DNA from: Anaerolineales bacterium
GTDB taxonomy: Bacteria; Chloroflexota; Anaerolineae; Anaerolineales; E44-bin32
Direction of reading: 5' to 3'
Assembly: GCA_037379555.1 (NCBI GenBank)
Contig: JARRJK010000006.1
Location: 21,769 to 85,768, forward strand
DNA: 64,000 nucleotides
The notes below the pieces were generated by a model that was given only the letters and a program-made list of their open reading frames with translations, made no database searches and was not told the origin of the DNA. The position numbers and the translations under genes are program-made. Position 1 is the first letter of the stretch, and each line of letters opens with the position of its first letter. Below are positions 4,375-27,809 of this stretch, piece after piece.

Positions 4375-4406
4375 TTATTTCTTCTGCAGTACGAGTGTTG
4401 GGGCTT

Positions 4407-11589: not shown

Positions 11590-11793
11590 ATGGCGCTTCT
11601 CCGCCTCTCATGTTTGTTGCCGCGGGATTACACCAGATCAGGTTGGACCTTCCGAATCGAAACAAGCATACCATGCGAGGTTAATTTCATCGTACAGAAA
11701 GGGAGAAGAGAGAATTCCGAAAGAACCCACCGGCTCAGGTTAGAAGTCGACAACATGGGCGGACTATGCTCTGGAGGGATTCTCAGATAGAGG

Positions 11794-12327
11794 TTGAACT
11801 ACCGGAGGCAGGAAATGGACAGTATGGATAAAACGACAGAAACGACATATACATTCACCGCCCGCAGTTCGCAGGACCCGGCCCGAGTGGCGACATTTAC
11901 ACTGCTTGATGGCCGTGTCTCGGTCGATCTCGGCGTGCCGTTTGAACAGCTCGAGACACTGCTGGAGGAGGAAGAGCCCGGCCAGGAGCAGGAGCGCAAG
12001 CCCTGGATGCGGCCGCTGCTGGTCTCGCTCGCGCAACGCAAGCTGCGCCCATTCCGTCTGGCAGACGTTGAAGCACACACGAAGGGCGATCGGTTGAAGG
12101 TGCGCGCCTGGACACGAGTGGCCGGGCTGCGCCTGGCACCGATCGATTTTTCCTTTGAAGCCGTCGACAATCCTTCTGCCGCTCACGATTTCGTGCGTGA
12201 GCTTCACCACCGTCAGCACGAGAAGCGAACCGCTTCCGCTAGCGGGGGATTGTTCGATTACTGGATTGGCTGGGCAGCTGCTTTTCTGGGAGTGCTTCTC
12301 TTCTTCCGCCGATGGCGGAGAGCATAA
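11794..12327 (+). CDS. Hypothetical protein with a C-terminal transmembrane anchor
   Basis: ORF with no recognisable domain; C-terminal hydrophobic helix (YWIGWAAAFLGVLLFF). Start uncertain (Met codons at 11794, 11815, 11824). Confidence 0.4.
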   Translation: MNYRRQEMDSMDKTTETTYTFTARSSQDPARVATFTLLDGRVSVDLGVPFEQLETLLEEEEPGQEQERKPWMRPLLVSLAQRKLRPFRLADVEAHTKGDRLKVRAWTRVAGLRLAPIDFSFEAVDNPSAAHDFVRELHHRQHEKRTASASGGLFDYWIGWAAAFLGVLLFFRRWRRA

Positions 12328-12380
12328 CTCTAAGCCCAATCGCGTCGCCACGACTTCGACGGTACGAAGGGAAGGACGGT

Positions 12381-13580
12381 ATGAAAGAGGTCAAATATCT
12401 CCTGGTTGGGGGCGGAATGACGGCCGCCGCGGCGGCCAACGCGATCCGCAAAGCTGACCCGCAGGGATCGATCATGATGATCAGCGCAGAGGCTGAGCCG
12501 CCCTACGCTCGACCGCCGCTGAGCAAGGATCTGTGGCGTGAGGGCGAGGTCGATTCGATCTGGCAGGAGCTGCCTGGTGACGGTTTCGAGCTCCTGCTTC
12601 AGCGCTGGGCGGTCGGCCTCGATCCCGGGCAGCACCTCGTGCGCGATGACCACGGCGACGAATACGGCTACACCAGGCTGCTCCTGGCGACAGGCGGCCG
12701 GCCGCGCCAGCTCAAGGACGCCGAGGGCGTGAACTTCTTCCGCACCCTACAGGATTACAGGCGCCTGCGGGCGCAGGCTGAAGAGCTGGAGCGTTTCGCC
12801 GTCATCGGTGGCGGCTTCATCGGTTCGGAGCTTGCCGCAGCCCTTGCGATGCAGGGCAAGCAAGTGGTGCAGGTCTTTCCCGAACCACACATCGGGGCGT
12901 TGATGTTTCCGGATGACCTGGCGCAGGATCTCGAGCGGATATACGCCGAGCGCGGCATCGAGATCCGGGCCGGGGAGCTTGTCTCAGGCGTCGAGCGCTC
13001 CGGAGACGAGTTGACGGTGCATACCGACCGGGATGATTACAGGGTCCAGGCGGCAGTCGGCGGGGTGGGCATCCTGCCAAATGTGGATCTCGCCCGCTCA
13101 GGCGGCCTGAGGGTCCGGGAGGGGATCGTCGTAGATGACCATCTCCGGACATCTGAGAAAGATATCTATGCCGCCGGAGATGTAGCGGAATTCTTCCAGC
13201 CCGATCTGGATACCTACCGCGTCGTGGAGCATGAGGATAACGCGCTCACGATGGGCCGCCAGGCGGGCCGTGCGATGGCGGGCGAAGAAGTCGCCTACGA
13301 TCACATGCCCTATTTCTATTCAGACCTTTTCGACCAGGGCTATGAGGCTGTGGGTGAGATATCACGGGATCACGAAATGGTCAGCGTCTGGCAAGAACCT
13401 TTCCGCAAAGGAATCGTGTACTACCTCTCGGAAGGGCAGGTGCGGGGGGTCCTGCTCTGGAATGTGTGGGAGCGCCGTGAACAGGCCCGCGCGTTGATCG
13501 CGCGCACAGAAGCGGTCACGCGGGAAGAACTCGAGAACGTACCGTTGGATGAACTGATCCAGTTGGAGAAAGCAGCTTGA
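12381..13580 (+). CDS. FAD-dependent pyridine-nucleotide-disulfide oxidoreductase (AIF/ferredoxin-reductase-like)
   Basis: FAD Rossmann YLLVGGGMTAAAAA, NAD Rossmann FAVIGGGFIGSELAA, and YAAGDVAEF. ATG at 12381 preceded by gaaggacgg; the longer ORF start at 12312 overlaps the previous gene. Confidence 0.8.
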   Translation: MKEVKYLLVGGGMTAAAAANAIRKADPQGSIMMISAEAEPPYARPPLSKDLWREGEVDSIWQELPGDGFELLLQRWAVGLDPGQHLVRDDHGDEYGYTRLLLATGGRPRQLKDAEGVNFFRTLQDYRRLRAQAEELERFAVIGGGFIGSELAAALAMQGKQVVQVFPEPHIGALMFPDDLAQDLERIYAERGIEIRAGELVSGVERSGDELTVHTDRDDYRVQAAVGGVGILPNVDLARSGGLRVREGIVVDDHLRTSEKDIYAAGDVAEFFQPDLDTYRVVEHEDNALTMGRQAGRAMAGEEVAYDHMPYFYSDLFDQGYEAVGEISRDHEMVSVWQEPFRKGIVYYLSEGQVRGVLLWNVWERREQARALIARTEAVTREELENVPLDELIQLEKAA

Positions 13581-13640
13581 TGGCGGGGAGGATCTGATGT
13601 GCCTGGCCGCAAAAGGAGACCGATCTCATCGATGATATCC

Positions 13641-14636
13641 ATGGCAAACCGATTTAAAGAAGAGCAGGGCCTGCTCCGGCTGGATGATTTTTCCGAATTC
13701 GTAAGCCAGGAAACGCTGGATCGCATACGGCGTAAAGCTGCGCCGCTCCAGGAGAAGCACATCACGCACATCAATTCGACCTACTACGGCGGCGGGGTGG
13801 CTGAGCTGCTCTCTTCACTGAGCCTGCTGATGAACAGCGTGGGCATCCGGACGGGATGGAGGGTCATTCAGGGAGCGCCGGACTTCTTCAGCGTCACGAA
13901 GAAGATGCACAACGCCCTGCAGGGCGCGGACATCAACCTTTCAGAACGCAAGAAGGAAATCTACCACCACGTCACGGTCCAGAATGCGGTGCGGAATCAT
14001 CTTGATCACGATGTCGTCTACGTTCATGATCCGCAGCCGCTGGGCATGATTGACTACTACGAGAAGAAAGGCCCCTGGATCTGGCGCTGCCACGTGGATC
14101 TCTCACACCCGGATCCCGAATTATGGAATTTCCTGAAACCGTGGGTCGAGAAGTACGACGCCGTGATCACGTCGCTTCCGGAGTACAAGCTGGATCTCAA
14201 GACGCCGCAGCGCTTCATCATGCCGGCAATCGACCCTACATCGATCAAGAACCGCAAATTGAGCAAGGAGGAGATCGACGAACGCTTCGAATACTACGAC
14301 ATACCGCGCGACCTGCCGCTGGTTGTGCAGATCTCGCGCTTCGACCGCTGGAAAGACCCACGCGGCGTGATTGAAGCATTCAAGCTGGCTTCGAAGCGCA
14401 TCGATGCCAGATTGATCCTGCTCGGCAATGTGGCCACAGATGACCCGGAAGGCGAAAAGGTCTACCAGGAGCTGCTCGAATTCAGCGACGACCGCATCCG
14501 GATCATGAGCCGGGAAGACACGGCGCTCGTTAATGCGCTGCAGTGCGAAGCAGCCGTCGTGCTGTGGCACGGTGAGCCAGATCACCACCGCCGCGCCGCC
14601 GCACGAGCTCGGCCTCGGCGACAAGCCCCTGTTTGA
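13641..14636 (+). pseudogene. TreT-like (trehalose synthase family, GT4) glycosyltransferase lacking the C-terminal catalytic segment
   Basis: The N-terminal about 300 aa look like the TreT family (HINSTYYGGGVAELL...WRCHVDLS...VVQISRFDRWKDP...LLGNVATDDPEG...ALVNALQ). After ...AAVVL the frame runs into Arg/Pro-rich nonsense and stops. The GT4 EX7E region (EGFGL..EA) is absent. A different frame at 14570-14670 reads ...HELGLGDKPLFETIYRLKGSAS*, like a displaced native C-terminus. Confidence 0.6.
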
Positions 14637-14685
14637 GACGATCTACCGCTTGAAAGGTAGCGCAAGTTAATTGGGAGGCACGACC

Positions 14686-15051
14686 ATGGCATTACCAGAC
14701 CTGCCGATCGAATACCACAGCGAAGCACGCGGGGTCCCGGAGACGTTGGAGACAGAAGCCCGACGGCACCTGCGGGCTCTGAGCGAAGGACATAAGGATA
14801 TGACGGGAGCCTCCGTGACTATCTCGCGGCCGGAACACGGCGAGACTCCGCATCTGTATCAAGCGCGTGTCATCGTATACATGCGGCCTGAACACGTCAC
14901 AGCATCCGAGAAACACGAAGACCCCGAAATTGCTCTCAAGGGCGCGCTGGGAGCCGTTGAACGACAGATTCGTGAACGTCGCGCCAAACTTAAAGAGAAA
15001 TGGAAGCGGCCTGATCTTTCAGACCCTGCCAGACGACAATTCCAAGAATAG
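14686..15051 (+). CDS. hpf: Ribosome hibernation factor-like protein (HPF/RaiA, S30AE family, short form)
   Basis: gggagg RBS 8 nt before the ATG at 14686. The pattern ...ASVTISRPEHGETPHLYQARVIVYMRPEHVTASEKHEDPEIALKGALGAVERQIRERRAKLKEK fits the beta-alpha-beta-beta-beta-alpha HPF/RaiA family consensus as I remember it. Confidence 0.6.
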   Translation: MALPDLPIEYHSEARGVPETLETEARRHLRALSEGHKDMTGASVTISRPEHGETPHLYQARVIVYMRPEHVTASEKHEDPEIALKGALGAVERQIRERRAKLKEKWKRPDLSDPARRQFQE

Positions 15052-15062
15052 GAGAATTCACC

Positions 15063-16085
15063 ATGGCGAACATCGCAATCAACGGAATGGGACGGATCGG
15101 GCGGGCGGCGCTCAAACAGATCCAGGATCTGCCGGACCTTGAGCTTGTGGCTGTCAATGACCTGATCGACATCGAAAACATCGCTTATCTGCTGAAATAC
15201 GACACGGTCTACGGCCGCATGCCGCAGGCGGTCAGCGTGCAGGATGGCGAGTTGAAGGTGGGTGATCACACCATCCGCTTCCTGCAGGAGCGGGATCCGG
15301 CCAATTTGCCCTGGGGTGAATTGGGGATCGATATCGTGCTTGAATGCACTGGCGTATTTCGCAAGTCCAAAGACTTGCAGAAACACCTGCATGCCGGAGC
15401 GCGGTCTGTCATCCTCTCCGCGCCCGCGAAGGACGATGAGGTGATGACCATCGTGTACGGGGTTAATCAGAGCGAGGTGAAAGAAGGGCATATCGTTTCC
15501 TGCGCAAGCTGCACGACCAACTGCATCACTCCGGTGGTGGAAGTGATCGACCGCCGGATCGGGATTCAGAAAGCGCTGATGACCACCATCCACGCGTACA
15601 CAGCTTCGCAAGGCATCGTCGATGGTCCGAGCAGCAAGTGGCGACGCGGACGTGCGGGTGCGGCCAATCTCGTCCCCACGACGACCGGTGCCGCCCTGGC
15701 GACGACCAAGGCGCTGCCGCAGCTCGAAGGCCGCTTCGACGGCGTTGCGGTGCGCGCACCCGTGCCGGCCGGTTCGGTGGCCGACATGACCTTTCTCGTC
15801 AAGCGGGCGACGACCATCGATGAAGTGAATTCAATCCTGCGCGAGGAAGCCGGTACCGACAGGTATCGAGGGATACTTGGTACTACCGATGATTCGATCG
15901 TTTCGAGCGATATCCTCGGTGATCCTCACGCCTCCATCGTCGATCTGCAGATGACTCAGGTCGTCGATCAAGACTTGGTGAAGATCATGAGCTGGTATGA
16001 CAATGAATGGGGGTACACACGACAGATGCTGCGCGAGGCGGAAAACGTGGCGCAAAACCTCCCGGCGAAAGCGGGGAAGGATTGA
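15063..16085 (+). CDS. gap: Type I glyceraldehyde-3-phosphate dehydrogenase
   Basis: INGMGRIGR NAD-binding N-terminus, catalytic SCASCTTNC, and WYDNEWGY near the C-terminus. Confidence 0.92.
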   Translation: MANIAINGMGRIGRAALKQIQDLPDLELVAVNDLIDIENIAYLLKYDTVYGRMPQAVSVQDGELKVGDHTIRFLQERDPANLPWGELGIDIVLECTGVFRKSKDLQKHLHAGARSVILSAPAKDDEVMTIVYGVNQSEVKEGHIVSCASCTTNCITPVVEVIDRRIGIQKALMTTIHAYTASQGIVDGPSSKWRRGRAGAANLVPTTTGAALATTKALPQLEGRFDGVAVRAPVPAGSVADMTFLVKRATTIDEVNSILREEAGTDRYRGILGTTDDSIVSSDILGDPHASIVDLQMTQVVDQDLVKIMSWYDNEWGYTRQMLREAENVAQNLPAKAGKD

Positions 16086-16089
16086 GGGC

Positions 16090-16335
16090 ATGGCACTGTA
16101 TCAGGTGGAGACGAAATTGTCCGAAGACGAGGCGCTCGAGCGCGCCCGCGAGTTCTTCGGAGAGGATGGACTGGGATTGCACTTGAAGGAGCAACAGGAC
16201 TGCTGTCTGGAGTTCACGGGCGGAGGAGGTCACGTATCGGTCATTGCTGTTAACGGCGAGGGCATAAGGCTTGAGATCGAGACACGCGAGTGGGACCGCC
16301 AGGTCGGACAGTTCATGGAGGAAGTTGGGGGATGA
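16090..16335 (+). CDS. Small hypothetical protein (81 aa)
   Basis: ATG at 16090, 5 nt after the gap stop. The longer ORF from 15997 would overlap gap. No recognisable domain. Confidence 0.4.
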   Translation: MALYQVETKLSEDEALERAREFFGEDGLGLHLKEQQDCCLEFTGGGGHVSVIAVNGEGIRLEIETREWDRQVGQFMEEVGG

Positions 16336-16386
16336 AGTGTCGCCGCCGCAGCTCGATGACTGAAGAAGCTTGCGGAGCGCTGCCCG

Positions 16387-17190
16387 GTGCCTGAACTTCC
16401 TGACGTCGAGGTGTTCAGACGCTATGTCGACGCGACCGCACTGCACAAGACGATACATGATGTCGATATCCAGGCCGAAAGGATTCTGGAGGGCAGCTCG
16501 AGCCGCTCGTTCACCCGCGCCTTGAAGGGCAAGGCATTTGAGTCGAGCCGGCGCCATGGCAAATACCTCTGCCTGGAGTTGACGAACGGCCGCTGGCTGG
16601 TGCTGCACTTCGGCATGACAGGAAGCCTGAAATACTTTCTGCACTCCGAGGATGAGCCGGATTACACCTACGCGCTGTTCACGTTCAGCAATGACTACCA
16701 CCTGGCCTTCCTCAACCCGCGCAAACTCGGTACGTTGGCGATCTATGACAGCGTTGCGGCGCTGATCGAGGATAAGGATCTCGGACCGGATCCGCTTGAA
16801 GTGGGGTTTACTTTCGAGGACTTCAAACATGTGCTGCAGGGCCGGCGCGGCATGCTGAAGTCCACCCTGATGAATCAGTCGATCCTCGCCGGTATTGGAA
16901 ATGTGTATTCGGATGAGATCCTCTTCCAACTCGGTTGGTATCCGCGCGGCAAGGTCGATCGGCTGGATGAGGAGGGGCTGCATGCTTTCTACCGCACGAT
17001 GCGGCACGTTTTGCGCGAGGCGGCTGAGCGCGAGGCTGATCCAGCACGGTTTCCGGATTCCTGGCTCATCCCCCATCGCAGACCCGGCGCAAGCTGCCCT
17101 CGGTGCAGGGGCGAGGTTCAGAAGATCAAGGTCGTTGGACGGTCCGGCTATTTTTGTCCCGCTTGCCAGAAGAAGTTAGGTTCGACGTGA
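16387..17190 (+). CDS. mutM: Formamidopyrimidine-DNA glycosylase / Nei family (Fpg)
   Basis: Catalytic N-terminus (M)PELPDVE, H2TH region (MNQSILAGIGNVYSDEILF) and C-terminal zinc finger CPRCRGEV...YFCPACQ. GTG start. Confidence 0.85.
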   Translation: MPELPDVEVFRRYVDATALHKTIHDVDIQAERILEGSSSRSFTRALKGKAFESSRRHGKYLCLELTNGRWLVLHFGMTGSLKYFLHSEDEPDYTYALFTFSNDYHLAFLNPRKLGTLAIYDSVAALIEDKDLGPDPLEVGFTFEDFKHVLQGRRGMLKSTLMNQSILAGIGNVYSDEILFQLGWYPRGKVDRLDEEGLHAFYRTMRHVLREAAEREADPARFPDSWLIPHRRPGASCPRCRGEVQKIKVVGRSGYFCPACQKKLGST

Positions 17191-17202
17191 CCAAAGGAAA
17201 GC

Positions 17203-17808
17203 ATGGGAGATGAAAGCGTGAGCAAGAAGGATTCACTGAAAGAGTACGAAAGCAAGCGAGATTTCCGAAAGACCCCTGAACCTAGCGGTGAAGGGGGTAA
17301 AGCATCCGATAAGCCGGTCTTTGTGATCCAGAAGCACGATGCCAGGTCGCTGCACTATGACTTCCGGCTGGAGGTCGACGGCGTGCTGAAATCCTGGGCA
17401 GTTCCGAAGGGCCCGTCGACAGACCCGAGTCAGAAGCGGCTGGCGGTCCCGACCGAGGATCACCCGCTGGATTACGCCTCGTTTGAAGGAGTGATCCCCG
17501 AGGGTGAATACGGGGCGGGAACCGTCATGGTGTGGGATCATGGTCCCTACCGCAACTTGCGAGCGGAGAAGAAAGACGATGGGTTATCAATGGAAGATGC
17601 GATCGATGATGGAAAGGTGGAGGTCTGGTTGGATGGTGAGAAGTTGCGTGGGGGATATGCTCTAATCCGCACCGGCGGCGATGAACGCTGGCTGATGATC
17701 AAGATGGATGATGACGAGGCCGACGCACGCCGCAACCCAACCAGCACTGAACCGGATTCGGTCATCAGCGGCCGGTCGCTGGAAGAGATCGCAGCCGGCG
17801 GATCATGA
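17203..17808 (+). CDS. Stand-alone LigD 3'-phosphoesterase (PE) domain protein
   Basis: KRDFRKTPEP...FVIQKHDARSLHYDFRLE...LKSWAVPKGPS...EDHPLDY motifs of the LigD PE domain. Confidence 0.85.
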   Translation: MGDESVSKKDSLKEYESKRDFRKTPEPSGEGGKASDKPVFVIQKHDARSLHYDFRLEVDGVLKSWAVPKGPSTDPSQKRLAVPTEDHPLDYASFEGVIPEGEYGAGTVMVWDHGPYRNLRAEKKDDGLSMEDAIDDGKVEVWLDGEKLRGGYALIRTGGDERWLMIKMDDDEADARRNPTSTEPDSVISGRSLEEIAAGGS

Positions 17809-18812
17809 GTCCAGCTTCACTGATCGACCGCTATCCAGGATCCGGATTGAAGGAGCGTGAACTGCCGCAGTGGGTGGAGCCAATGCTGGCGACGCTCACC
17901 GATAAGCACTTCTCGCGAGAGGGGTGGATCTTCGAGCGCAAGTTCGATGGTGAACGTTGTCTGGCTTTCCGGAATGGAAAGCAGATCAACCTGTTCACGC
18001 GCAATCACAAACCGCTCAACGATACATATCCTGAGCTGGCAGAGGCCTTACAAAAACAGGAGCCGCAGCGATTTATCGTGGATGGCGAAGTCGTGGCTTT
18101 CGAGGGCAACCGGACCAGCTTCGCGAGGTTGCAGGAACGCATGCAGATCAAGGATCCGCAGAAAGCCCACGCTTCAAAGATCGCAGTCTACTATTACATC
18201 TTTGACATCCTCTATCTCGATTCATACGATACGCGTGGTCTGGACCAGCGTGATCGCAAACAGCTGCTGAAGGAAAGCCTGCAGTTTGAGGATCCGCTGC
18301 GCTACACGGCTCATCGCAACACCGACGGCCAGCAGTATTTCAAGCAGGCATGTAAGCGCGGCTGGGAGGGCGTGATCGCGAAAGAGGCTGACGCTTCCTA
18401 CGCCCATGGTCGCTCCACCCACTGGCTTAAATTCAAGTGCGTGAAGGAACAGGAGTTCGTCATCGGCGGTTTCACCGACCCGCAGGGCTCGCGCATCGGG
18501 TTTGGCGCCCTGTTGGTGGGGTACTACGAAGGTTCGGCGCTCCGCTACGCCGGCAAGGTTGGGACCGGTTACGACGATCAAACGCTCAGACAGCTCCATA
18601 ACAAGCTGAGCGGCCTCGAGCGCGAGAATCCGCCTTTCAAGACAGAGGGCGATCTTCCCGCTACAGGAGTCCACTGGACGCAGCCGGAACTCGTCGTCCA
18701 GGTTGGCTTTGAAGAGTGGACCGACGATCTGCGGCTGAGGCAGCCGCGCTACCTTGGTTTGCGTGATGATAAATCACCGCAGACTGTGCACAGGGAGAAG
18801 GCAGATTCATGA
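17805..18812 (+). CDS. ligD: ATP-dependent DNA ligase (LigD ligase domain, stand-alone)
   Basis: Adenylation motif I region WIFERKFDGERCLA, EGVIAK motif and an OB-domain C-terminus. The start overlaps the PE stop (ATGA at 17805-17808). Confidence 0.9.
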   Translation: MSPASLIDRYPGSGLKERELPQWVEPMLATLTDKHFSREGWIFERKFDGERCLAFRNGKQINLFTRNHKPLNDTYPELAEALQKQEPQRFIVDGEVVAFEGNRTSFARLQERMQIKDPQKAHASKIAVYYYIFDILYLDSYDTRGLDQRDRKQLLKESLQFEDPLRYTAHRNTDGQQYFKQACKRGWEGVIAKEADASYAHGRSTHWLKFKCVKEQEFVIGGFTDPQGSRIGFGALLVGYYEGSALRYAGKVGTGYDDQTLRQLHNKLSGLERENPPFKTEGDLPATGVHWTQPELVVQVGFEEWTDDLRLRQPRYLGLRDDKSPQTVHREKADS

Positions 18813-19732
18813 GCGATGAGCTCGAAATCGATGACCACACGGTGGAAATATCTCACCGCGAGAAGCTTTTCTTCCCGGATGAGGGGTTGACGAAGGGCGA
18901 TCTGGTCGATTACTACCGGCGCATCGCGGAGGTCATGCTGCCGCATCTCAAAGGACGCCCGATCAGCATGCAGCGCTTTCCCGATGGAATCACGGGCGAG
19001 GGCTTCTATCAGAAAGAAGCGCCGGACTATTTTCCGGACTGGATTCAGCAGGTGGATGTGCTGGTTGAAGGGGAGGGCGAAAAACAACCTCAGGTCATCG
19101 TCGATGGGGCCGCGACACTCGTCTACCTGGCAAACCAGGCTTGCATCACGCCGCACACCTGGCTGAGCAGGGCTGGCCGGCTTGACCAGCCGGATAAGCT
19201 CATCTTTGATCTCGACCCTCCGGGTGACGATTTCAATGTCGTTCGGGAGGCGGCATATGCTTTACACAATATGCTGGAGGAGATCAGACTGGTTTCCTAT
19301 GTCATGACGACAGGCTCGCGGGGCCTGCACGTCGTCCTGCCGTTAAAATCCGGCGCGGGGTTCGACAACGTCCGTGACTTCGCACATGAGATCGCCGCTG
19401 CGCTGGCTGCGAGGGAACCCGAGAAGTGGACAGTCGAGGTGAGAAAAGCGAAGCGCGATGGCCGGCTGTTCCTGGATACCATGCGCAATGCGTATGCTCA
19501 AACTTCTGTCCCGCCGTACGCCGTCCGAGCCCTTCCCGCTGCTCCGGTCGCCACTCCGATCGAATGGGATGAACTGAGCGATCACAAACTGAACTCGCAG
19601 ACCTATTCAATGATGAATATCTTCCGCCGCCTGGGCCAGAAATCAGATCCGTGGATCGACATCTACGATAAAGCCGTCTCCCTGGATCATGCCTGGGAGC
19701 GATTCGCCACCTGGTCTGAAAATCGAGGCTAA
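18809..19732 (+). CDS. Stand-alone LigD primase-polymerase (Pol/AEP) domain protein
   Basis: SHREKLFFPDEGLTKGDL..YY, QRFPDGI, LIFDLDP and TGSRGLHVVLPL motifs of NHEJ polymerase domains. The start overlaps the ligase stop (ATGA at 18809-18812). Confidence 0.85.
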   Translation: MSDELEIDDHTVEISHREKLFFPDEGLTKGDLVDYYRRIAEVMLPHLKGRPISMQRFPDGITGEGFYQKEAPDYFPDWIQQVDVLVEGEGEKQPQVIVDGAATLVYLANQACITPHTWLSRAGRLDQPDKLIFDLDPPGDDFNVVREAAYALHNMLEEIRLVSYVMTTGSRGLHVVLPLKSGAGFDNVRDFAHEIAAALAAREPEKWTVEVRKAKRDGRLFLDTMRNAYAQTSVPPYAVRALPAAPVATPIEWDELSDHKLNSQTYSMMNIFRRLGQKSDPWIDIYDKAVSLDHAWERFATWSENRG

Positions 19733-19763
19733 GGGGTAGCGGCGGGATCGAGAGAGAATCCAT

Positions 19764-19798
19764 GCCTCCCCGGCCATGGCCGGGGAGGTCTTTGTTTC
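19764..19798 (+). terminator. Rho-independent terminator after the LigD genes
   Basis: cctccccggcc-at-ggccggggagg stem followed by tctttgtttcc. Confidence 0.65.
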
Positions 19799-19818
19799 CT
19801 GGGAACGAATGAGGAGAT

Positions 19819-20466
19819 TTACGTTTTTTTCGGGGGCAGTTGATTCACAAGATCGGAGACAACAGCTAATTTAACCCGGTCCTCGTCGATCTCGCTCACC
19901 CAGCTGATCGGAACATTTTTCTTCTCTTTCAAGAGCAGGCCCTCTGAGATCACGAACTGGGTGATCCTGTGGGATTCGGGGTCGCTGAAGATCTGTTCGA
20001 TGTCGCCGACCTTCTTGCCTTTCACATCGTAAACGGGCGCATTCTCCTTGATGGCCACATCACCCGGATCGATGTGCCGTTCTTTCTCTTCAATTAGTGG
20101 CTGCGGGCTGGCTACCGGGATGGCGGGCGATGCGGAGGCGTACGGGCTGGGGACGACGGGTATCAGTGGGACCGGCTTGAGGCTAGGGTAGTCGTCCCGA
20201 TCGACATCACCGATATATAGATAGTTGGTCTCCTCGAACTCCGGCAGTTCCTCCAGCATATCCTCATCGAGCCGCAGCGTCACGCGATCCTCGTCTGCCA
20301 TCTCGATCAGGTTGACCGGCACGACCCGGTCTTCCTTGAACAGCAGCCCTTTTTCGATGATGATATCGGTCACAGATTTCGTGACCGGATCGATCACCAC
20401 CCGCTCGATGTCGCCGATGTGTTCACCTCTACTGCTGATCACTTTCGTACCTGGTTTGAATTTCAT
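19819..20466 (-). CDS. Tandem PRC-barrel domain protein
   Basis: Two copies of a PRC-barrel-like module (GTKVISSRGEHIGDIERVVIDPVTKSVTDIIIEKG... and APVYDVKGKKVGDIEQIFSDPESHRITQFVISEG...) separated by a Pro-rich linker. Confidence 0.7.
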   Translation of the reverse strand: MKFKPGTKVISSRGEHIGDIERVVIDPVTKSVTDIIIEKGLLFKEDRVVPVNLIEMADEDRVTLRLDEDMLEELPEFEETNYLYIGDVDRDDYPSLKPVPLIPVVPSPYASASPAIPVASPQPLIEEKERHIDPGDVAIKENAPVYDVKGKKVGDIEQIFSDPESHRITQFVISEGLLLKEKKNVPISWVSEIDEDRVKLAVVSDLVNQLPPKKT

Positions 20467-20537
20467 CTTTAACCATCCTTTCTGTTGGCTGATGTGCTGT
20501 TTCGAGCGCTTGCACCAACCATCGATTTCAGCTCGGA

Positions 20538-21713
20538 TTATTCCTGCGGTTCGGCATAGCGCAGCAGCGCCGCGGCGAGATCGTCACCCGGCATGTCTTC
20601 GGCACTGATGCTGAACACCTGACCATCAGCCTGCAGTGTGTAGATTGCTGCCAGGTTCATCAGGTCTTCAGCCGTGGGGCTCCGGCCGTTCCCATCTGTC
20701 AATTTGATTCCGCTCTCGGAATAGTTGCCCCATAGGTGCTGGTTCCGGCACAGGAGAAGCGTGTCAACCTGTCCGTAATGGGCGGCTTTCAGCAAACGAT
20801 AAATCGAGTTTTCGGTCCGTCCTTCGATCGACCGGGCGTTGAGATACCGCTGCACAGCCTGTGCGGGCCGGCCATCACGTGCATTCGACACGGTCTCGCG
20901 CGCCTGTTCGGCAAGCTGACCCGAGTCGAGCAGATCGGGATTTCCGCCGATACGGCTGATGACCTGGACACCCTCGGCTAGCAGATCGTTGAATTCGCTG
21001 GTGATTTCATCCACTCCTGCCAGGATCAAAACATTCCCGCTGCCCAGGAGGTGCCGTTCGACCGGTGCAGCGACTTGCTGCAAATAGCGCCGCAGATTGG
21101 ATAAATCATCGTTTGATCCGGCGCCGTGGCCGTGGAACATCACAGGTTTTGAGGCCCGTTCCGCCCGGTCACTGGTGTGCAACTGGAGCTGTCGTTCCGG
21201 ATCGTCGAAAGCCAGCGCTTCTTCCATATTGGACGGAGCACCATTGAGTTCGATGGGTGTGACTTGCTCAGCATCTACTGTGAAGAAGCGGTTGCCCCCC
21301 TTGCTGATCGCAAGGACGAAGAACGACTGTTCCCGCTGCAGATCGAACAGCAGGGGACGAACGTACGGGTGCCGGCTTATGAAGCAGGCTGGTTCGGGGC
21401 TGTGCCGCAGGCGGATATAAAGTGGTTCCTCCGGCGTGATGTAGATCGCGAGGCCCGGCGAAGCCTGCTGCCAGAATTCACGCTCGTCGAGCAGGGCTTC
21501 GGCTGGTTTACGCAGTTCTTCGGCTTCGGGACCTCGCAGGCCGTACTCTGCCAGGTGTTCTTCAGCCTCGGTCAGCAAATTCTTGAGCTGGATGCGATCA
21601 CCTTTCCACTCGCCACCCACCCGGCGCGTTGGCAGGATAAACGTCAGGCACCATTCACCTTCGATCCCAATGAGCTGATGGATAACTTCACCTGAAAGCT
21701 TGTACTCGTCCAT
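20538..21713 (-). CDS. Bacterial eRF1/Pelota-like (baeRF-type) protein
   Basis: The N-terminus CLTFILPTRRVGGEWKGDRIQLKNLL and the C-terminal eRF1-domain-3-like part (KAAHYGQVDTLLL...DLMNLAAIYTLQADGQVFSISAEDMPG..LAAALLRY) match baeRF3/7-type proteins as I remember them. No GGQ tripeptide anywhere in the 391 aa. Confidence 0.6.
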   Translation of the reverse strand: MDEYKLSGEVIHQLIGIEGEWCLTFILPTRRVGGEWKGDRIQLKNLLTEAEEHLAEYGLRGPEAEELRKPAEALLDEREFWQQASPGLAIYITPEEPLYIRLRHSPEPACFISRHPYVRPLLFDLQREQSFFVLAISKGGNRFFTVDAEQVTPIELNGAPSNMEEALAFDDPERQLQLHTSDRAERASKPVMFHGHGAGSNDDLSNLRRYLQQVAAPVERHLLGSGNVLILAGVDEITSEFNDLLAEGVQVISRIGGNPDLLDSGQLAEQARETVSNARDGRPAQAVQRYLNARSIEGRTENSIYRLLKAAHYGQVDTLLLCRNQHLWGNYSESGIKLTDGNGRSPTAEDLMNLAAIYTLQADGQVFSISAEDMPGDDLAAALLRYAEPQE

Positions 21714-21818
21714 ATCGAGACCTCCTTACCACACAACCCGCAGCTCTCCCTGAGCGCCGCGTTCTGCCGGAAAGAACCGCCAGGGTACCTCCCGGCAGAA
21801 CAAAGGCTGGGGACGCTG

Positions 21819-22238
21819 TTAGATTCCGCGCAGCACCCGGGCCAGCTCACGGGCATGCTCAGATTCATCGGCCGCCATTTCTTCGAGCTTTAGCTTCAGC
21901 TCGACCTCGCCCAGTGCTTCTGCGGCCTGAGCGTGCTGCTTGTAATTCACAACATCCTGCAGCTCGAGCTTGAGATCCTGTTCGAGCATGTCCTTAAGAT
22001 TCTCGGTCGGCTTGAACTCCTTCGGTTTGAGCGTCGGCTCACCGCCTAGGTCGACGATAACGTCACTCAGGAATGTGGCGTGACCGAGTTCGTCCGGGAT
22101 CTCGCCGCGCAGCATCTCGCGCATTGAAGGAGCCTCGGGCCCCGACGCTTTGCTGGCCTGGTAGTTGTAGCGGATGATCGTCCCCAATTCGGCGGACAGA
22201 TCCTGGTTGAGCATATTGATCAGGTCTTTCTTCGACAT
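21819..22238 (-). CDS. Ferritin-like diiron four-helix-bundle protein (bacterioferritin-related)
   Basis: Four-helix pattern with paired metal ligands: SAELGT, PDELGH (ExxH), LKLELQD, ADESEH (ExxH). Confidence 0.75.
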   Translation of the reverse strand: MSKKDLINMLNQDLSAELGTIIRYNYQASKASGPEAPSMREMLRGEIPDELGHATFLSDVIVDLGGEPTLKPKEFKPTENLKDMLEQDLKLELQDVVNYKQHAQAAEALGEVELKLKLEEMAADESEHARELARVLRGI

Positions 22239-22282
22239 GTTTACTCCTTAAATTTGTCTGCTTTAAGCTTGTTTGAAATGTC

Positions 22283-23422
22283 TCAGGCGCTGCGGCCAGC
22301 CTCGAGACGCTTCGAAAACAGCGTCGGGCTGCTCGTCGCGAGCTGATAAATCTCGCTGATGTCACGGCTGGTGATGATTCCCAGGAACTTTCCGTCCTTG
22401 CTTACCGGCAGCGCGTCGTAGCTATTCTTGGAGAGCTTCTGCTGGACCTGGAACAGTTCGTCTGAAGGGCTAATGAGCGGCACTTCGGTCAGCATGATCT
22501 GATCGATCGGTGTATCCACTGGCCGCTTCTTGAGTGCCTGCACCATTGTCTGAAGCGTGAGTAAGCCAACCACCTCACCGTCTTCGCATACGGGGAAGTT
22601 CGCTTGCGAGGAGTGCAGGGTTAGGTCGGCGGCATCCTGCAGCGTTTGATCAGGCGACAACGTGCTTACATTGCGTGAGTAAGCATCTTCCGCCCGCAGA
22701 TTGCGCAGCACGCTGCGCAGGTGAACCATACGGCCTTCCATTCCAGCGCCCATGTAAATAAAGATGGCAATCAGAATCAGCAGCAGGTTCCCGGACATGA
22801 AACCCCACAAGCCCAGCCCCCAGGCTGCAATCTGGCCGACGACGACAGCAATGTCCGTGGCGCGCGTATACTCAAGGCGCGTCGCTAACAGCGCCCGCAG
22901 GACTCGACCGCCGTCCATCGGGAAAGCCGGCAGCAAGTTGAATGCTCCGATGAATATGTTGGTGGCGAATACGTAGAGGAAGATCGATTCAAACGTCAGC
23001 CTGCCGATATTAGACATCAATGCGCTGGTGTTTGGCAGGTTGTTCGGCAGCAGGTTCCTCCCTGCCAGAACGAGCAGTATAGCCAATACCAGGTTCACCG
23101 CCGGACCGGCGATAGAGATTGCCAGCTCCTGGGAGGGCTTTTCCGGGATGTTTTCCATCTGCGATACGCCGCCGATTGGCAGCAGCACGATGCGCTTTAC
23201 CGGGATATCAAATCCGCGCGCTGTGAGCGCGTGGCCGAGCTCGTGCAGCACAACGATGGCGAACAAGATCAGCGTCACGATGACACCGAACGCAGCTCCC
23301 TCCCAGCCCTGGCCGGTGAAAACGCCAAAATAGAAGGCACCCCAGAGCAAGATCAAGGGAAATGTGAAGTGCATGCGGATTTCGATTCCACGGATGCGGA
23401 AGAGTGTGATGGCGTTATTCAT
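22283..23422 (-). CDS. M50 site-2 metalloprotease with a C-terminal CBS pair
   Basis: HELGHAL zinc motif in a TM helix, a second ligand region NLLPAFPMDGGRV, and two CBS modules at the C-terminus. ATG at 23422 has a ggagg RBS; the ORF extends to 23470. Confidence 0.85.
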   Translation of the reverse strand: MNNAITLFRIRGIEIRMHFTFPLILLWGAFYFGVFTGQGWEGAAFGVIVTLILFAIVVLHELGHALTARGFDIPVKRIVLLPIGGVSQMENIPEKPSQELAISIAGPAVNLVLAILLVLAGRNLLPNNLPNTSALMSNIGRLTFESIFLYVFATNIFIGAFNLLPAFPMDGGRVLRALLATRLEYTRATDIAVVVGQIAAWGLGLWGFMSGNLLLILIAIFIYMGAGMEGRMVHLRSVLRNLRAEDAYSRNVSTLSPDQTLQDAADLTLHSSQANFPVCEDGEVVGLLTLQTMVQALKKRPVDTPIDQIMLTEVPLISPSDELFQVQQKLSKNSYDALPVSKDGKFLGIITSRDISEIYQLATSSPTLFSKRLEAGRSA

Positions 23423-23688
23423 AACATACCTCCGAAGCTCTCTGCCTTGCTCTCGATTCCAACGAGGCATGAAGGCTTGCTGAGTTCTAATACCTTATCT
23501 ATCTTGATTTTCACGCGCAGGGATAAAGAAGTGCTTGCATCTTGCGCTTGACTCTTGCGAACTTCTTACGATGCGCTACGGGCGAACCAGTTGGTAAGCT
23601 AAAGGACGGGAGCGCGCTGTTCTCCAGGGCTGCCGCCTGTCTGATATAAATAGGGTAGATCTGCGTCGTGATATCAAGGAGGTCGTGC

Positions 23689-23859
23689 ATGCCGTTGACA
23701 GCCAAAGACAGGCAGCGCAAGCGCAAACAGCGCAGGCAGCGCAAGCTGCGCAAGCTAAAACGCCGCTTCGAGGCGTCTGGGGACGCCCGTGAGCGTCAGA
23801 AGCTTGAGCAGAAGATACGCAACATTCAGCCTGGATGGGAGCCGGGGGGCGAAGGCTGA
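23689..23859 (+). CDS. Small highly basic protein (56 aa, Arg/Lys-rich)
   Basis: aaggagg RBS 6 nt before the ATG at 23689. Sequence MPLTAKDRQRKRKQRRQRKLRKLKRRFEASGDARERQKLEQKIRNIQPGW.... Sits 70 nt upstream of otsA-otsB on the same strand. Confidence 0.45.
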   Translation: MPLTAKDRQRKRKQRRQRKLRKLKRRFEASGDARERQKLEQKIRNIQPGWEPGGEG

Positions 23860-23928
23860 ACGGTGGGTCGTGCTCAGCGGAGCGGTAGGACTATGGGCCG
23901 CCCGCGGGTATGAAAGACGGGAGATAAA

Positions 23929-26157
23929 TTGAACACTGCCGGGAAAGCGCAACAGCTGACCGAGCGGCTGCTGGTCGTATCGAACCGGCTTCCCGTGACT
24001 GTCAACCGCCAGGATGATGGCCAGTTCGACTACACGCCGAGTGTGGGTGGGTTGGCAACTTCCCTCAACGCGCTGCGTGAAGAGATGGATATGCTCTGGC
24101 TGGGCACGCCGGGGCTGAATGTCGAGGATTCATCTGAACAACAGACGCTTCGCGATGAGTTGGAGCAGAAGTACGATAGCATACCGCTCTTCCTCGACCG
24201 GAAGGATTTCGAACTCTACTATAATGGCTTCAGCAATGGCTGCCTGTGGCCGTTGTTTCATTATTTCCCCCAGTTCGCACACTTCGATGAGCAGGAATGG
24301 GCCGCCTATCAGTCGGTAAACAGGATCTTCGCCGAACGCATCACCAGCATCGCCGGGCCCAATGACAGCATCTGGGTGCATGATTATCATTTGCTGCTGC
24401 TTCCCACCCTTCTGCGCCAGGCGCTGCCTGATGCGTCGATCGGTTTCTTTCTCCACATCCCCTTCCCCTCCTATGAGATCTTCCGCATGCTTCCATGGCG
24501 CGAGCAGATTTTGAGTGGAATGATCGGCGCCGACCTGGTCGGGTTCCATACCTACGGTTACGCCCGCCACTTCCTGAGCTCACTGCTGCGAATCCTCGGC
24601 CTGGAGCAGAATTTCGGCCGGGTTTCGGTGGGGGATCGCATTGTCCAGGTTGAAACCTTTCCGCTGGGGATTGACACCGAGCGATTTGCCCACGCCCAGG
24701 ACCTGCCGGCCGTGCAAACCCGCTTGCGCGAGTTGAAAGATGAGATTGGCGGCAGAAAGGTCATTCTCTCCGTAGATCGGTTGGATTTCACCAAAGGCAT
24801 CCTTGAGCGGTTGATGGCCTACGAGCATTTCCTTGAGGAACATCCGGAATGGCATGACCGCGTGAGTTTGGTCTCGCTTCTTGTGCCATCCCGTACGCGC
24901 GTTCCAGAGTATCAGAGCCTCAAGAGCCAGGTTGATGAGCAAATTGGCAGGATCAATGGGGAATTCGGTCAGCCTGGCTGGAATCCGATCACGTACCTCT
25001 ACCGCTCTTTGCCCTTCGAGCAGTTGGCTTCGCTCTACCTGCTCGCTGACGTCGCGCTGGTTACGCCTTTGCGTGACGGCATGAACCTGGTGGCGAAAGA
25101 ATATCTCGCCTCGCATACCGATGGGAGCGGCGTGCTCGTATTGAGCGAAACGGCCGGCGCCGCGGCCGAGCTGGGCGAAGCCTTAATCGTCAACCCTCAT
25201 GATCAGGAAGGGCTGGTACGGGCGCTCGATCAGGCGCTATCGATGCCGGTGGAGGAGCAAAGGACCCGCAACGCGCCGATGCGGGCCAGGCTCTCACGCT
25301 ACGATATCAACCGCTGGACCACGGAGTTCCTCGCCCAGCTGCGTGGCCTGCGTGAGGCGCGCCGGCTCCAGCTGCCGCGCCGTTTGCAGGGTGAACACCG
25401 CGCTGAACTGATGGAAGCGTATCGCTCTGCCAATCACCGGCTGCTGCTGCTGGACTACGACGGCACGCTGGTGCCCTTTGCGCAGACTCCCGGTGGAGCG
25501 AGCCCGGATCCGGAGCTCGTGGATTTGATCCGACAGCTCTCGTCTGATGCGCGCAACCAGGTGGTCGTGATCAGCGGACGCAACGCCAGCACGCTCGAAG
25601 CGTGGTTGGGTAAGACAGGTGCCGATCTGGTCGCCGAACATGGCGCCCGCATCCGGCGGTCGGAAAGCGCCGATTGGGAGCCGTTCGCCGAGAATCTGGA
25701 CGGCGATTGGAAGGACCAGCTGCGGCCGCTGTTCGAGGTATTTGTCGACCGCACGCCAGGGTCGCTGCTGGAGGAAAAAGGCGCGGCGCTGGTCTGGCAT
25801 TACCGCCGTGCGGACCCCGATCTCGGATCGCAGCGTGCAGCTGAGCTGATCGATGCGCTCGAGGGCTTTATCGCCAACACCAATCTGCATGTGCTGCAGG
25901 GGCATAAAGTGGTTGAGGTAAAACCGAGCACGGTCAGCAAGGGCCGGGCTGCGGGTCCCTGGTTGCAAGCGGAGCCGCCTGCGGAATTCACGCTCGTCAT
26001 GGGCGATGACGTGACGGATGAAGCCATGTTCGAGGCCGTCCCGGAGGGTTCGTGGACGGTGAAAATTGGGTCACCGGAGGGCTCGCACGCCCGTTTCTTC
26101 CTCTCCAGTACGGCCGATGTGCGGGCCCTGTTGAAGGCCATGGCCGGTATTTCTTGA
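23929..26157 (+). CDS. otsA: Bifunctional trehalose-6-phosphate synthase / trehalose-6-phosphate phosphatase (OtsA-OtsB fusion)
   Basis: GT20 N-terminal half ([10 protein letters not shown]...GGLATSL...[11 protein letters not shown]...DRLDFTKGI...[14 protein letters not shown]). HAD phosphatase C-terminal half ([13 protein letters not shown]...VVVISGR...[10 protein letters not shown]). TTG start at 23929. Confidence 0.9.
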
Positions 26158-26268
26158 GCTGATTCCCGTTCTCTAACATTTCGCTGATGTTGCTCCAACT
26201 CCAATTTAACGTTTGGGATGTACCTTAATCATAGCAACCATCTCAACGGAAAAAGAGGAGGTGTCGCA

Positions 26269-26715
26269 ATGACAATGCTTACACGTTGGGAACCTTTTCG
26301 AGAGATGCGTCGCTTGACCGATTTGCTTGACCGGACGATCGACGATGCCTGGTTGCGGGGCGCCTCTGATGGTGACCTCGAGGGTCCAGCACCCATCGAT
26401 GTCTACGAGACCGATGATGACGTTGTGGTGAAGGCCGTCATGCCAGGCGTGAAGGCGGATGATATCAGCATCTCCGTCGACCGCGATGTGCTGACCTTGC
26501 GCGGCGAGTCCACGTCCAAGACGGAAGAGCAGGACAAGGAACGCGCATACCACTTCCGCGAGATTCGCTATCGGCGCTATGGACGCTCGCTGCGCCTGCC
26601 GACGCTTGTCGATTCGGAGAAGGCCAAGGCTGAGTTTGAGGATGGTATCCTCACCCTCACCCTGCCCAAGGCTGAAGTCGTCAAGCCAAAGACGATCACC
26701 GTCAAAGCCAAGTAA
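26269..26715 (+). CDS. Hsp20/alpha-crystallin small heat-shock protein
   Basis: aggagg RBS. MLTRWEPFREM..., alpha-crystallin core (PIDVYETDDDVVVKAVMPGVKADDISISV...LTLRGE...RSLRLP...A.FEDGILTLTLPK). Confidence 0.9.
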   Translation: MTMLTRWEPFREMRRLTDLLDRTIDDAWLRGASDGDLEGPAPIDVYETDDDVVVKAVMPGVKADDISISVDRDVLTLRGESTSKTEEQDKERAYHFREIRYRRYGRSLRLPTLVDSEKAKAEFEDGILTLTLPKAEVVKPKTITVKAK

Positions 26716-26736
26716 CGTGCTTTCGGAAGGACATTT

Positions 26737-26775
26737 GAGGCCTGGAGGATTTCCTCCAGGCCTCTTCCTGTTCTC
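26737..26775 (+). terminator. Rho-independent terminator after hsp20
   Basis: gaggcctggagga-tt-tcctccaggcctc stem followed by ttcctgttctc. It lies between convergent genes. Confidence 0.6.
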
Positions 26776-27668: not shown

Positions 27669-27783
27669 GTTTTTCCCTCTTCTTTGCAAGGATTGGCACT
27701 ATAGGGCCATGGATTGGCGCTTGGGATTCCCCGTCCTTCCGAGATGAACACGCGGGTGGAGGGGAGAGCGAAACTCTCAATCG

Positions 27784-27809
27784 GATATTATTATCATGAT
27801 AATAATATC
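27784..27809. promoter_or_regulatory. Perfect 26-bp AT-rich palindrome (candidate operator)
   Basis: gatattattatcatgataataatatc is its own reverse complement. It sits in a short AT-rich island about 115 nt upstream of the lipoprotein gene start and about 100 nt downstream of tRNA-Asn (both minus strand). Confidence 0.4.

Follow-up and report, generated by a model that had tools for sequence, protein, structure and literature searches.

The 64,000-nt stretch analyzed here (the window; assembly GCA_037379555.1, contig JARRJK010000006.1, positions 21,769 to 85,768) belongs to the chromosome of an uncultured Anaerolineales bacterium and carries a real run of about 15 kb of genes for survival without growth. 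Among them are genes for a distant homologue of the ribosome hibernation factor Balon, an HPF/RaiA-family protein, trehalose synthesis, Fpg and LigD-type DNA repair enzymes, a ferritin-like protein, and Hsp20. In our view, the run is probably a functionally linked dormancy cluster that grew by gene addition at one plastic locus, beside a conserved trehalose/Hsp20 operon. An earlier note on this DNA, made from the letters alone, had proposed a co-regulated survival island. That the clustering exceeds chance was supported on two counts: the gene families recur beside Balon-like or HPF-like genes in unrelated lineages, and the block that contains most of them varies as a unit of 0, 2, or 14 genes.

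The open reading frames (ORFs) of the window were listed and then scanned against Pfam and NCBIfam, and the scans verified all of the gene families named in the earlier note. The cluster itself was also found, with a start at 11,824, about 1.8 kb ahead of the one given before, because the unk177 gene and a gene for an AIF-like reductase head the same-strand run. This plus-strand run comprises 10 genes, from unk177 to the LigD primase-polymerase gene, with gaps of at most 53 nt and two overlaps. The genes for the PRC-barrel, Balon-like, ferritin-like, and M50-CBS proteins lie on the minus strand, convergent to the ten-gene run, and past the divergent intergenic region the plus strand carries DUF6800, otsAB, and hsp20. 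The divergent region was as described earlier, and three terminator-like hairpins were located (Table 1). The layout comprises at least five separate transcription units: the ten-gene run; the Balon-like and PRC-barrel genes; the M50-CBS and ferritin genes; DUF6800 with otsAB; and hsp20. An identical gene order was found in three independent Joint Genome Institute (JGI) metagenome contigs (L001–L003; compared loci are denoted by L numbers), with proteins 70 to 97% identical. Because three independent assemblies carry it, the arrangement is not an assembly chimera.

To place the cluster in a wider context, we searched 81 distant loci with all window proteins; these were 80 genome loci, among the matches listed, anchored on distant Balon-like homologues (29–37% identical), plus L004. 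Up to 10 kb on each side of the anchor was covered, 1.21 Mb in total. The M50-CBS family was found in seven of the 81 loci (adjacent to the anchor in four Chloroflexota; also in Desulfobacteraceae, Nitrospirota, and Syntrophaceae), and TreT in six (63–66% identical; Deltaproteobacteria, Syntrophales, and Zixibacteria, all outside Chloroflexota). HPF-like genes were present in five loci; OtsA, PRC-barrel, and AIF-like reductase genes in four each; LigD parts in three; and Fpg and GAPDH in two each (L009 and L083 for GAPDH). The enrichment was calculated on an assumed and deliberately generous background of three copies of each family per 4-Mb genome. At that background, the Poisson tail was approximately 5e-5 for M50-CBS, 4e-4 for TreT, and 2e-3 for HPF.

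The distant loci also showed how the families combine. Contiguous series were TreT, P-type ATPase, and Balon-like in L044 (Zixibacteria); Balon-like, Fpg, LigD 3'-phosphoesterase (PE), and M50-CBS in L045 (Nitrospirota); and unk177, GAPDH, S1, HPF, Balon-like, and OtsA in L009. Fpg adjoins M50-CBS in L006. With the HPF-like protein as the anchor, a second scan gave few loci, and all three with sufficient flank contain a Balon-like gene. Their gene orders were PRC-barrel, LigD PE, GAPDH, LigD polymerase, NYN RNase, 2-hydroxyacid dehydrogenase, DUF72, HPF, and Balon-like (L088); HPF and Balon-like (L091); and HPF, Balon-like, and M50-CBS (L092). The lineages with recurrence included Zixibacteria, Syntrophales and other Deltaproteobacteria, Nitrospirota, and other Chloroflexota. 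Clustering revealed further recurrent neighbors, namely BrkB/YihY, MscS, GT4 glycosyltransferase, P-type ATPase, PfkB, Usp, MGH1-like hydrolase, and sigma-54 response regulators, which are also osmotic, stress, or dormancy types.

Table 1. Features of the cluster and of its surroundings, in window coordinates
Feature	Position	Strand	Evidence or remark
unk177, soluble domain and C-terminal membrane helix	11824..12327	+	first gene of the ten-gene run
AIF-like/ferredoxin-reductase-type FAD oxidoreductase	12381..13580	+	Pyr_redox_2 E 6e-51 with AIF_C
TreT trehalose synthase pseudogene	13632..14667	+	~212-nt internal deletion and frameshift; TreT_GT1 E 3e-59
Short HPF/RaiA-family protein, divergent subfamily	14686..15051	+	PF02482 32.4 bits (gathering score 23.7)
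Type I GAPDH	15063..16085	+	TIGR01534 406 bits (cutoff 367)
81-aa lineage-specific protein	16090..16335	+	no family match; 70% identical in L001
Fpg/Nei-family bifunctional DNA glycosylase/AP lyase	16387..17190	+	three Pfam domains
Stand-alone LigD 3'-phosphoesterase (PE)	17203..17808	+	PF13298 E 2e-45; TIGR02777 217 bits (cutoff 144)
Stand-alone LigD-type ATP-dependent DNA ligase	17805..18812	+	Pfam
Stand-alone LigD-type primase-polymerase	18809..19732	+	PF21686 306 bits
GC-rich hairpin (terminator) between convergent polymerase and PRC-barrel genes	19764..19789	+	conserved in L001
Two-PRC-barrel-domain protein (PRC/DUF2171)	19819..20466	-	Pfam
Distant Balon-family (bacterial aeRF1-like) homologue, 391 aa	20538..21713	-	Pfam baeRF families 7/6/3
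Terminator-like hairpin 3' of ferritin gene	21777..21798	-	conserved in L001
Small ferritin-like protein	21819..22238	-	PF00210
M50 intramembrane metalloprotease with CBS pair	22283..23422	-	Peptidase_M50 and two CBS domains
Divergent intergenic region	23423..23688		conserved footprints 23,528-23,572 and 23,620-23,660
DUF6800 protein, 56 aa, highly basic	23689..23859	+	backbone; weak Pfam hit
Bifunctional OtsA-OtsB (trehalose-6-phosphate synthase/phosphatase)	23929..26157	+	backbone; NF011071 971 bits (cutoff 634)
Hsp20 small heat-shock protein	26269..26715	+	backbone; Pfam
Strong terminator hairpin after hsp20	26737..26764	+	
Variable 12-kb block, 14 genes	11677..23639		between NAPRTase and DUF6800
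YtxH-like general stress protein, 97 aa	3,901-4,194	-	between receiver-only and sigma-70 genes
Alpha-glucan phosphorylase	42,554-44,752		outside the cluster
Methylpurine-DNA glycosylase	48,040-48,660		
MGH1-like glycoside hydrolase (mannosylglycerate-hydrolase type)	60,215-62,611		outside the cluster

The earlier note had expected the cluster to give functional context to its uncharacterized genes. This held for the eRF1-like protein, which is a distant Balon homologue; the micro-protein (DUF6800) belongs to the otsAB backbone, outside the variable block. The NCBIfam model NF052287 ("AOC03_06830 family ribosome hibernation factor") matched the Balon-like protein at full length (residues 12–386 on model positions 2–361) with an E value of 2e-28 and 99.7 bits against a cutoff of 330, and NF052289 gave 18.5 bits, also below its equivalog cutoff. 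Because the equivalog cutoff was not reached, we assigned the protein to a distant clade and not to the equivalog. In its AlphaFold2 (AF2) model (predicted local distance difference test (pLDDT) score 79.8), the loop at residues 174–201, which is variable in sequence, has low confidence. The top six Foldseek matches of the model in the PDB were Balon (8rdv, 8rd8, and 8rdw) and Msmeg1130/Rv2629 (8v9j, 8v9l, and 8v9k), with E values of 1e-15 to 1e-22 and template modeling (TM) scores of 0.65 to 0.76, whereas aRF1/eRF1 reached only TM 0.4 to 0.5. The Foldseek alignments gave 14 to 17% identity to the solved Balons, and the strings GGQ and NIKS were absent from the 391-aa sequence. Since it is a distant Balon-family homologue, the protein is a putative ribosome hibernation factor.

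The HPF-like protein scored 20.6 bits against TIGR00741, under the cutoff of 40.9. With the single sequence, phmmer found no PDB match, and a profile was required: the subfamily profile matched seven RaiA/HPF chains (best E 8e-6), as well as a "CBS domain-containing protein" (9l96_a, E 0.51). In the window, 5.5 kb separates the HPF-like gene from the Balon-like gene, and the two are on opposite strands; in relatives they are neighbors, adjoining each other in L031, L059, L062, L088, and L091 and lying within ~2 kb in L092. Similar associations have been published: baeRF-1 genes are associated with HPF genes (PMC6514570), Balon genes sit in stress operons beside RaiA and Hsp20 (PMC10901736), and noncanonical HPF genes adjoin Balon (bioRxiv 2025.11.04.686544). 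In L009 and L089, the S1 gene stands directly beside the HPF-like gene.

The DNA repair part of the cluster consists of Fpg and the three LigD activities. The Fpg protein reached 182 to 185 bits against the NCBIfam fpg models, slightly under their cutoffs of 203 to 212. The LigD activities are encoded by three separate genes with overlapping ends, and Fpg belongs to the same tight same-strand run, 12 nt upstream of the PE gene. The best PDB relative of the ligase was the M. tuberculosis LigD ligase domain (1vs0, E 1.5e-43). For the primase-polymerase, the PDB ranking was 5dmu ("NHEJ polymerase," 330 bits), 6sa0 (deposited as "DNA polymerase LigD, polymerase domain," 168 bits), and the M. tuberculosis LigD PolDom (139 bits). 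We take 6sa0 to be Prim-PolC and 5dmu to be the polymerase of Methanocella, which presumably also has split LigD genes, with Ku encoded elsewhere.

The earlier note had assigned these genes to nonhomologous end joining (NHEJ). PE, ligase, and primase-polymerase are all encoded, but no Ku domain was found among the scanned ORFs of the 64-kb window. Given this lack of Ku and the lead position of Fpg ahead of the LigD genes, we regard the NHEJ role as unproven, and the Fpg-PE-ligase-polymerase series is equally compatible with stationary-phase base excision repair and with end joining. In some mycobacterial species, LigC/Prim-PolC is cotranscribed with Fpg; in stationary phase, it uses ribonucleotides for base excision repair after the 3'-phosphate has been taken off (PMC5663958). 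End joining with a distantly encoded Ku is a possibility, because the polymerase is closest to 5dmu and only second to 6sa0. It is doubtful that the three LigD genes serve only Ku-dependent NHEJ, with Fpg as an unrelated neighbor. The ranking of 5dmu agrees with such an exclusive role, as does the report that split LigD operons are common; the same report describes LigD mutants as also oxidant sensitive (PMC5663958), and this, together with the published Fpg-LigC-Prim-PolC operons that act in base excision repair, the missing Ku, and the position of Fpg directly upstream of PE here and beside LigD PE in L045, argues against it.

The second line of evidence for the dormancy cluster came from related genomes, which were found through DUF6800 homologues; five lineages were compared. 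A backbone was conserved, with the upstream order S1, CarD, receiver, YtxH, sigma-70, hybrid kinase-regulator, transaldolase, and NAPRTase, and the downstream order DUF6800, OtsAB, Hsp20, and DUF2085 onward. DUF6800-otsAB-hsp20 is part of this backbone and was kept in all five lineages. Between NAPRTase and DUF6800 there are no genes in L093/L094/L095 and L098, two genes (unk177 and ferritin) in L096/L097, and 14 genes in the window and L001 (the 14-gene block is present in at least the window and L001–L003). Most of the region behaves as one variable block, in support of the clustering noted earlier; the micro-protein, otsAB, and hsp20 belong to the backbone. The block boundaries were set by two conserved flank elements, AGCATACCAYGC and TCTGATATAA, the latter in the micro-protein promoter. 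In both the window (11,665–11,676) and L093 (9,869–9,880), AGCATACCAYGC precedes the NAPRTase start codon by exactly 75 nt, and L001 and L096 likewise carry this element upstream of their NAPRTase genes; it may be a NAPRTase promoter or operator.

Such a block could be a horizontally acquired mobile genomic island between NAPRTase and otsAB. Its presence or absence among close relatives at one precise site would agree with acquisition, as would the sampled Balon-anchored loci, in which the homologues of TreT, Fpg, and LigD all come from other phyla (those of TreT at the identity given above). However, Pfam scans of the block proteins detected no integrase, transposase, or recombinase; no direct repeats flank the block, and no tRNA was found at the junctions, the only tRNA being 4.3 kb away. 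The GC content at third codon positions (GC3) was 0.69 for block genes and 0.72 for backbone genes (Mann-Whitney p = 0.23). An intermediate state of two genes exists in L096. In addition, the Balon-like gene of distant Anaerolineae is already enclosed by this backbone, and that favors ancestral presence and repeated loss. The order in L066 is S1, CarD, sigma, Balon-like, OtsA, and OtsB, and related backbone orders with a Balon-like gene were found in L012, L009, L007, L020, L050, L067, and L059. Distant Anaerolineae, L053 included, also carry backbone genes (S1, CarD, sigma-70, transaldolase, and NAPRTase; window 1,280–11,589) at most 10 kb away from the Balon-like gene; this recurrence reflects either deep synteny or a wider functional neighborhood. 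We consider a mobile island improbable. Because distant Anaerolineae keep the Balon-like gene among the same backbone, we favor an old stress locus that accretes and erodes genes over a recently inserted island, and gain and loss at the locus fit the sporadic loss and relocation reported for hibernation factors (bioRxiv 2025.11.04.686544).

The trehalose genes fall on both sides of the block boundary. As noted earlier, the TreT gene of the block, listed as 13,632–14,636 within the ten-gene run, is disrupted. Window positions 13,632–14,564 match residues 1 to 311 of the intact 416-aa orthologue in L001, and residues 405 to 416 follow in another frame at 14,632–14,667. In place of codons 312 to 404 (~93 codons, with the catalytic C-terminal half among them) there are only ~67 nt, and the reading frame shifts. 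An intact N-terminal domain remains; the segment REGFGLTVTEAMWKG is among the missing residues, and the product is not a complete two-domain GT-B enzyme. In the backbone, the DUF6800 gene is directly upstream of otsAB (gaps of 4 to 136 nt) in the window, L001, L093–L095, L096, L097, and L098, with or without the block. Its peptide is 77 to 93% identical across nine clusters, indicating a real gene, and might take part in trehalose synthesis, as a partner or regulator, or else be a small protein that binds nucleic acids. Neither the DUF6800 peptide nor the 81-aa protein had a homologue in any distant locus searched.

In the 5' untranslated region (UTR) of hsp20 (26,236–26,275), each of the five lineages has an invariant AACCATCTC ~20 nt upstream of an invariant Shine-Dalgarno sequence GGAGGTGTCGCAATG; the spacer between them varies (the pair is given as CCATCTC/GGAGGTG). 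These elements could pair and mask the ribosome-binding site in the manner of an RNA thermometer. The corresponding hairpin showed weak folding (z -2.0 to +0.1) and no covariation, and no Rfam match was found there (E up to 1). An Rfam scan of 11–28.5 kb detected only a tRNA and a subthreshold ROSE_3 match within the GAPDH gene.

The shared upstream motif that the earlier note had envisaged was not found, as no word or motif exceeded shuffled controls. Pairwise words of 10 to 14 nt among 13 upstream regions gave nothing above the shuffled expectation. The top k-mers over 75 upstream regions from Chloroflexota loci were rejected, since they represented the ribosome-binding site and homologous upstream coding sequence. 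An 8-mer, TTCTTACG/CGTAAGAA, recurred in three footprinted promoter regions across lineages; it was not enriched in the window and lacked statistical support. No DosR-type palindromic box was detected, and the palindrome was under-represented. The sigma-70 consensus was not present in the intergenic regions, occurring only at the tRNA and inside genes. In footprinting over the five lineages, the conserved elements were particular to each promoter region; the footprint at 23,620–23,660 in the divergent region, for example, is an extended -10-like TGATATAAAT. Common induction of the five units is at most plausible.

Several results weigh against functional linkage. Beyond the missing shared motif, no regulator was found among the block genes. 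LigD, Fpg, and GAPDH are individually only marginally enriched near the Balon-like gene, the loci are phylogenetically nonindependent, most of the 81 loci hold none of the island families, and Hsp20 and ferritin were not recurrent near the Balon-like gene in them. Because S1, CarD, sigma-70, and transaldolase also recur near the Balon-like gene in Anaerolineae, part of the recurrence is inherited synteny. Within the window, TreT is broken, Ku was not found, and the Balon-like and HPF-like proteins both fall under their NCBIfam equivalog cutoffs.

These points raise the question of whether the genes are together by chance or purely by inheritance, without functional or regulatory coupling. The absence of a common motif and the recurrence of flanking housekeeping genes would fit such a juxtaposition, as would the sister lineages that manage without the block. 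As to conservation of the arrangement, to which the earlier note had looked, the perfect synteny in the closest relative among the matches listed says nothing on selection, because the flanks are collinear too, as they are in all of L001–L003. In the distant loci, the associations recur in phyla without the shared backbone (L044, L045, and L088), and the enrichment of TreT, M50-CBS, and HPF survives the generous background. A juxtaposition of this kind is accordingly not likely, and a functionally linked dormancy cluster is the better account. The idea of a conflict or antiphage defense island, in which the aeRF1-like protein would rescue or block toxin-attacked ribosomes with its neighbors as effectors, is most improbable despite the proposal of Burroughs and Aravind that baeRF-1 proteins arise in biological conflicts (PMC6514570) and a weak similarity of the CBS pair to a CBS antiphage protein, since 0 of 10 block proteins matched any PADLOC model, the neighbors are metabolic, chaperone, and repair genes, and the solved Balon structures are hibernation complexes.

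Among the other block genes, unk177 had no Pfam or PADLOC match. Its 13 homologues are 38 to 100% identical, with Anaerolineales as the sole named source (the fully identical one is an NCBI protein with locus tag P8X64_01465), and in L009, L070, and L085 it lies near HPF-like or PRC-barrel genes, among others. The AF2 model (pLDDT 74) has three strands, two helices, three strands, a long helix, and a membrane helix. Its best Foldseek matches were mostly head-and-stalk proteins of the XLF/XRCC4/SAS-6/PAXX type and were not significant (E at least 0.02, TM at most 0.27); the nonsignificant XLF/XRCC4-type resemblance is curious given the neighboring LigD genes. For the AIF-like reductase, all NCBIfam ferredoxin-NAD+ reductase matches were under the cutoff, and homologues were found near the Balon-like gene in L021, L038, L044, and L060. 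PRC-barrel homologues occur near the Balon-like gene in L007, L008, L050, L070, and L088, and near unk177 in L085. The best PDB relative of the ferritin-like protein was 2qqy, deposited as "Sigma B operon" (E 2e-24). The M50-CBS gene is directly downstream of the Balon-like gene in L050, L053, L067, and L070 and nearby in L006, L045, L051, and L092. A parallel is Rv2625c of M. tuberculosis, which we take to be a CBS-domain-bearing M50 protease encoded close to Rv2629 in the DosR cluster.

The 49 kb of the window beyond the cluster contain ordinary housekeeping genes, with the exception of genes for the YtxH-like protein, the methylpurine-DNA glycosylase, the glucan phosphorylase, and the MGH1-like hydrolase. 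A YtxH gene is found at the equivalent position in L093, and another is beside the unk177 homologue on a JGI contig. MGH1-like hydrolases neighbor the Balon-like gene in six distant loci. DUF72 (YecE-like) genes lie within 10 kb of it in five distant loci (L006, L009, L059, L077, and L083) and also in L088, where an NYN-domain RNase gene is located between the LigD polymerase gene and the HPF/Balon-like pair (7,548–9,990). Downstream of hsp20, a perfect 24-nt AT-rich palindrome (ATATTATTATCA/TGATAATAATAT, 27,790–27,815), partly conserved in L001, overlaps the promoter-like site of a lipoprotein-like gene (26,862–27,689, minus strand) that is absent in L093; in sequence, the palindrome looks like a Fur/Zur-type operator.

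If the cluster acts in dormancy, the HPF-like and Balon-like proteins would occupy, silence, and protect the ribosomes left idle once growth stops, like their solved relatives. OtsAB would supply trehalose, TreT being dead in this strain, and Hsp20 would hold unfolding proteins. The ferritin-like protein would sequester iron and thereby limit iron-driven oxidation. Fpg, PE, primase-polymerase, and ligase could mend oxidized bases and breaks without replication, probably with ribonucleotides: Fpg would leave a one-nucleotide gap with a 3'-phosphate, which PE would clean, the polymerase fill, and the ligase seal. The same three LigD activities could join double-strand breaks if Ku is encoded elsewhere. 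GAPDH and the flavoprotein reductase may serve energy or redox balance, the energy or moonlighting role of GAPDH being a guess. More speculatively, the M50-CBS protease may sense adenine-nucleotide status and relay it to a substrate tethered to the membrane.

A broader proposal, which we advance only tentatively, is that the cluster represents a portable cross-phylum toolkit. This would combine the Balon-like/HPF-like pair with trehalose synthesis (TreT or OtsA), Ku-independent, ribonucleotide-using oxidative repair (Fpg, LigD PE, polymerase, and ligase, with a dedicated GAPDH), and an energy-sensing M50-CBS protease, and would accrete and erode at a single hotspot in Anaerolineales. It would also bring along unk177, the PRC-barrel protein, and DUF6800, some of which may act on ribosomes.

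Balon hibernation was discovered only in 2024, and few of its cellular partners are known. The locus and its mosaics in other phyla suggest a genomic link between Balon/HPF hibernation and both compatible-solute synthesis and replication-independent DNA repair. Anaerolineae dominate many anoxic habitats and are seldom cultured; the cluster offers a testable list of dormancy parts for slow-growing sediment and sludge bacteria of this kind. The repair operon could be a complete base excision repair pathway for nongrowing cells, and several small conserved proteins without assigned function are candidates for ribosome binding. The series of 0, 2, and 14 genes provides natural material on gain and loss at a stress locus.

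Compared with known systems, the cluster resembles the Balon/RaiA operons (Helena-Bueno et al. 2024, PMC10901736) and the baeRF-1/HPF neighborhood (Burroughs and Aravind 2019, PMC6514570) in having an aeRF1-derived, Balon-fold protein that lacks GGQ and NIKS near HPF/RaiA and Hsp20 genes. It differs from them in the distance and opposite strands of its Balon-like and HPF-like genes, and its partners TreT/OtsAB, Fpg with LigD parts, GAPDH, M50-CBS, and PRC-barrel are outside the neighbors listed in those two reports. A literature search for Balon, trehalose, and hibernation combined returned no paper.

There is also a likeness to the DosR regulon in functional families. The hypoxia-induced list of M. 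tuberculosis includes Rv0079 (HPF-like), Rv2629 (Balon homologue), hspX (Hsp20), bfrB (ferritin), ctpF (P-type ATPase), pfkB, the universal stress proteins Rv2623/2624c, and Rv2625c (PMC4082495), and P-type ATPase, PfkB, Usp, and M50-CBS genes also recur near this Balon clade. However, the genes of the DosR regulon are scattered and joined by a regulator and its box, whereas those of the window are clustered, and no DosR-like regulator or box was found there. The window also adds trehalose synthesis and Fpg/LigD repair.

In DNA repair, the closest likeness is to the mycobacterial LigC/Prim-PolC/Fpg operons (Plocinski et al. 2017, PMC5663958), as an archaeo-eukaryotic primase (AEP)-type primase-polymerase and an ATP-dependent ligase stand with Fpg, a set expected to work in nongrowing cells with ribonucleotides. 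Unlike those operons, the window adds a LigD-type PE, which could replace the Endo IV/Exo III step of the published reconstitution, and its polymerase is closest to 5dmu, with 6sa0 second. The sigma-B regulon of Firmicutes offers a further parallel: the closest solved relative of the ferritin-like protein carries the name of that operon, and YtxH genes are found nearby and beside unk177 homologues. YtxH-like and Hsp20 proteins are typical general stress proteins. Unlike in sigma-B regulons, there is no SigB/RsbVW module, and the only nearby sigma factor is of the RpoD/SigA group and part of the conserved backbone. As far as literature searches reach, what is new relative to these systems is the link of the Balon/HPF pair with trehalose synthesis, Fpg/LigD repair, GAPDH, and M50-CBS across phyla, the plastic 0/2/14-gene locus in Anaerolineales, and the conserved uncharacterized genes for unk177, the 81-aa protein, and DUF6800.

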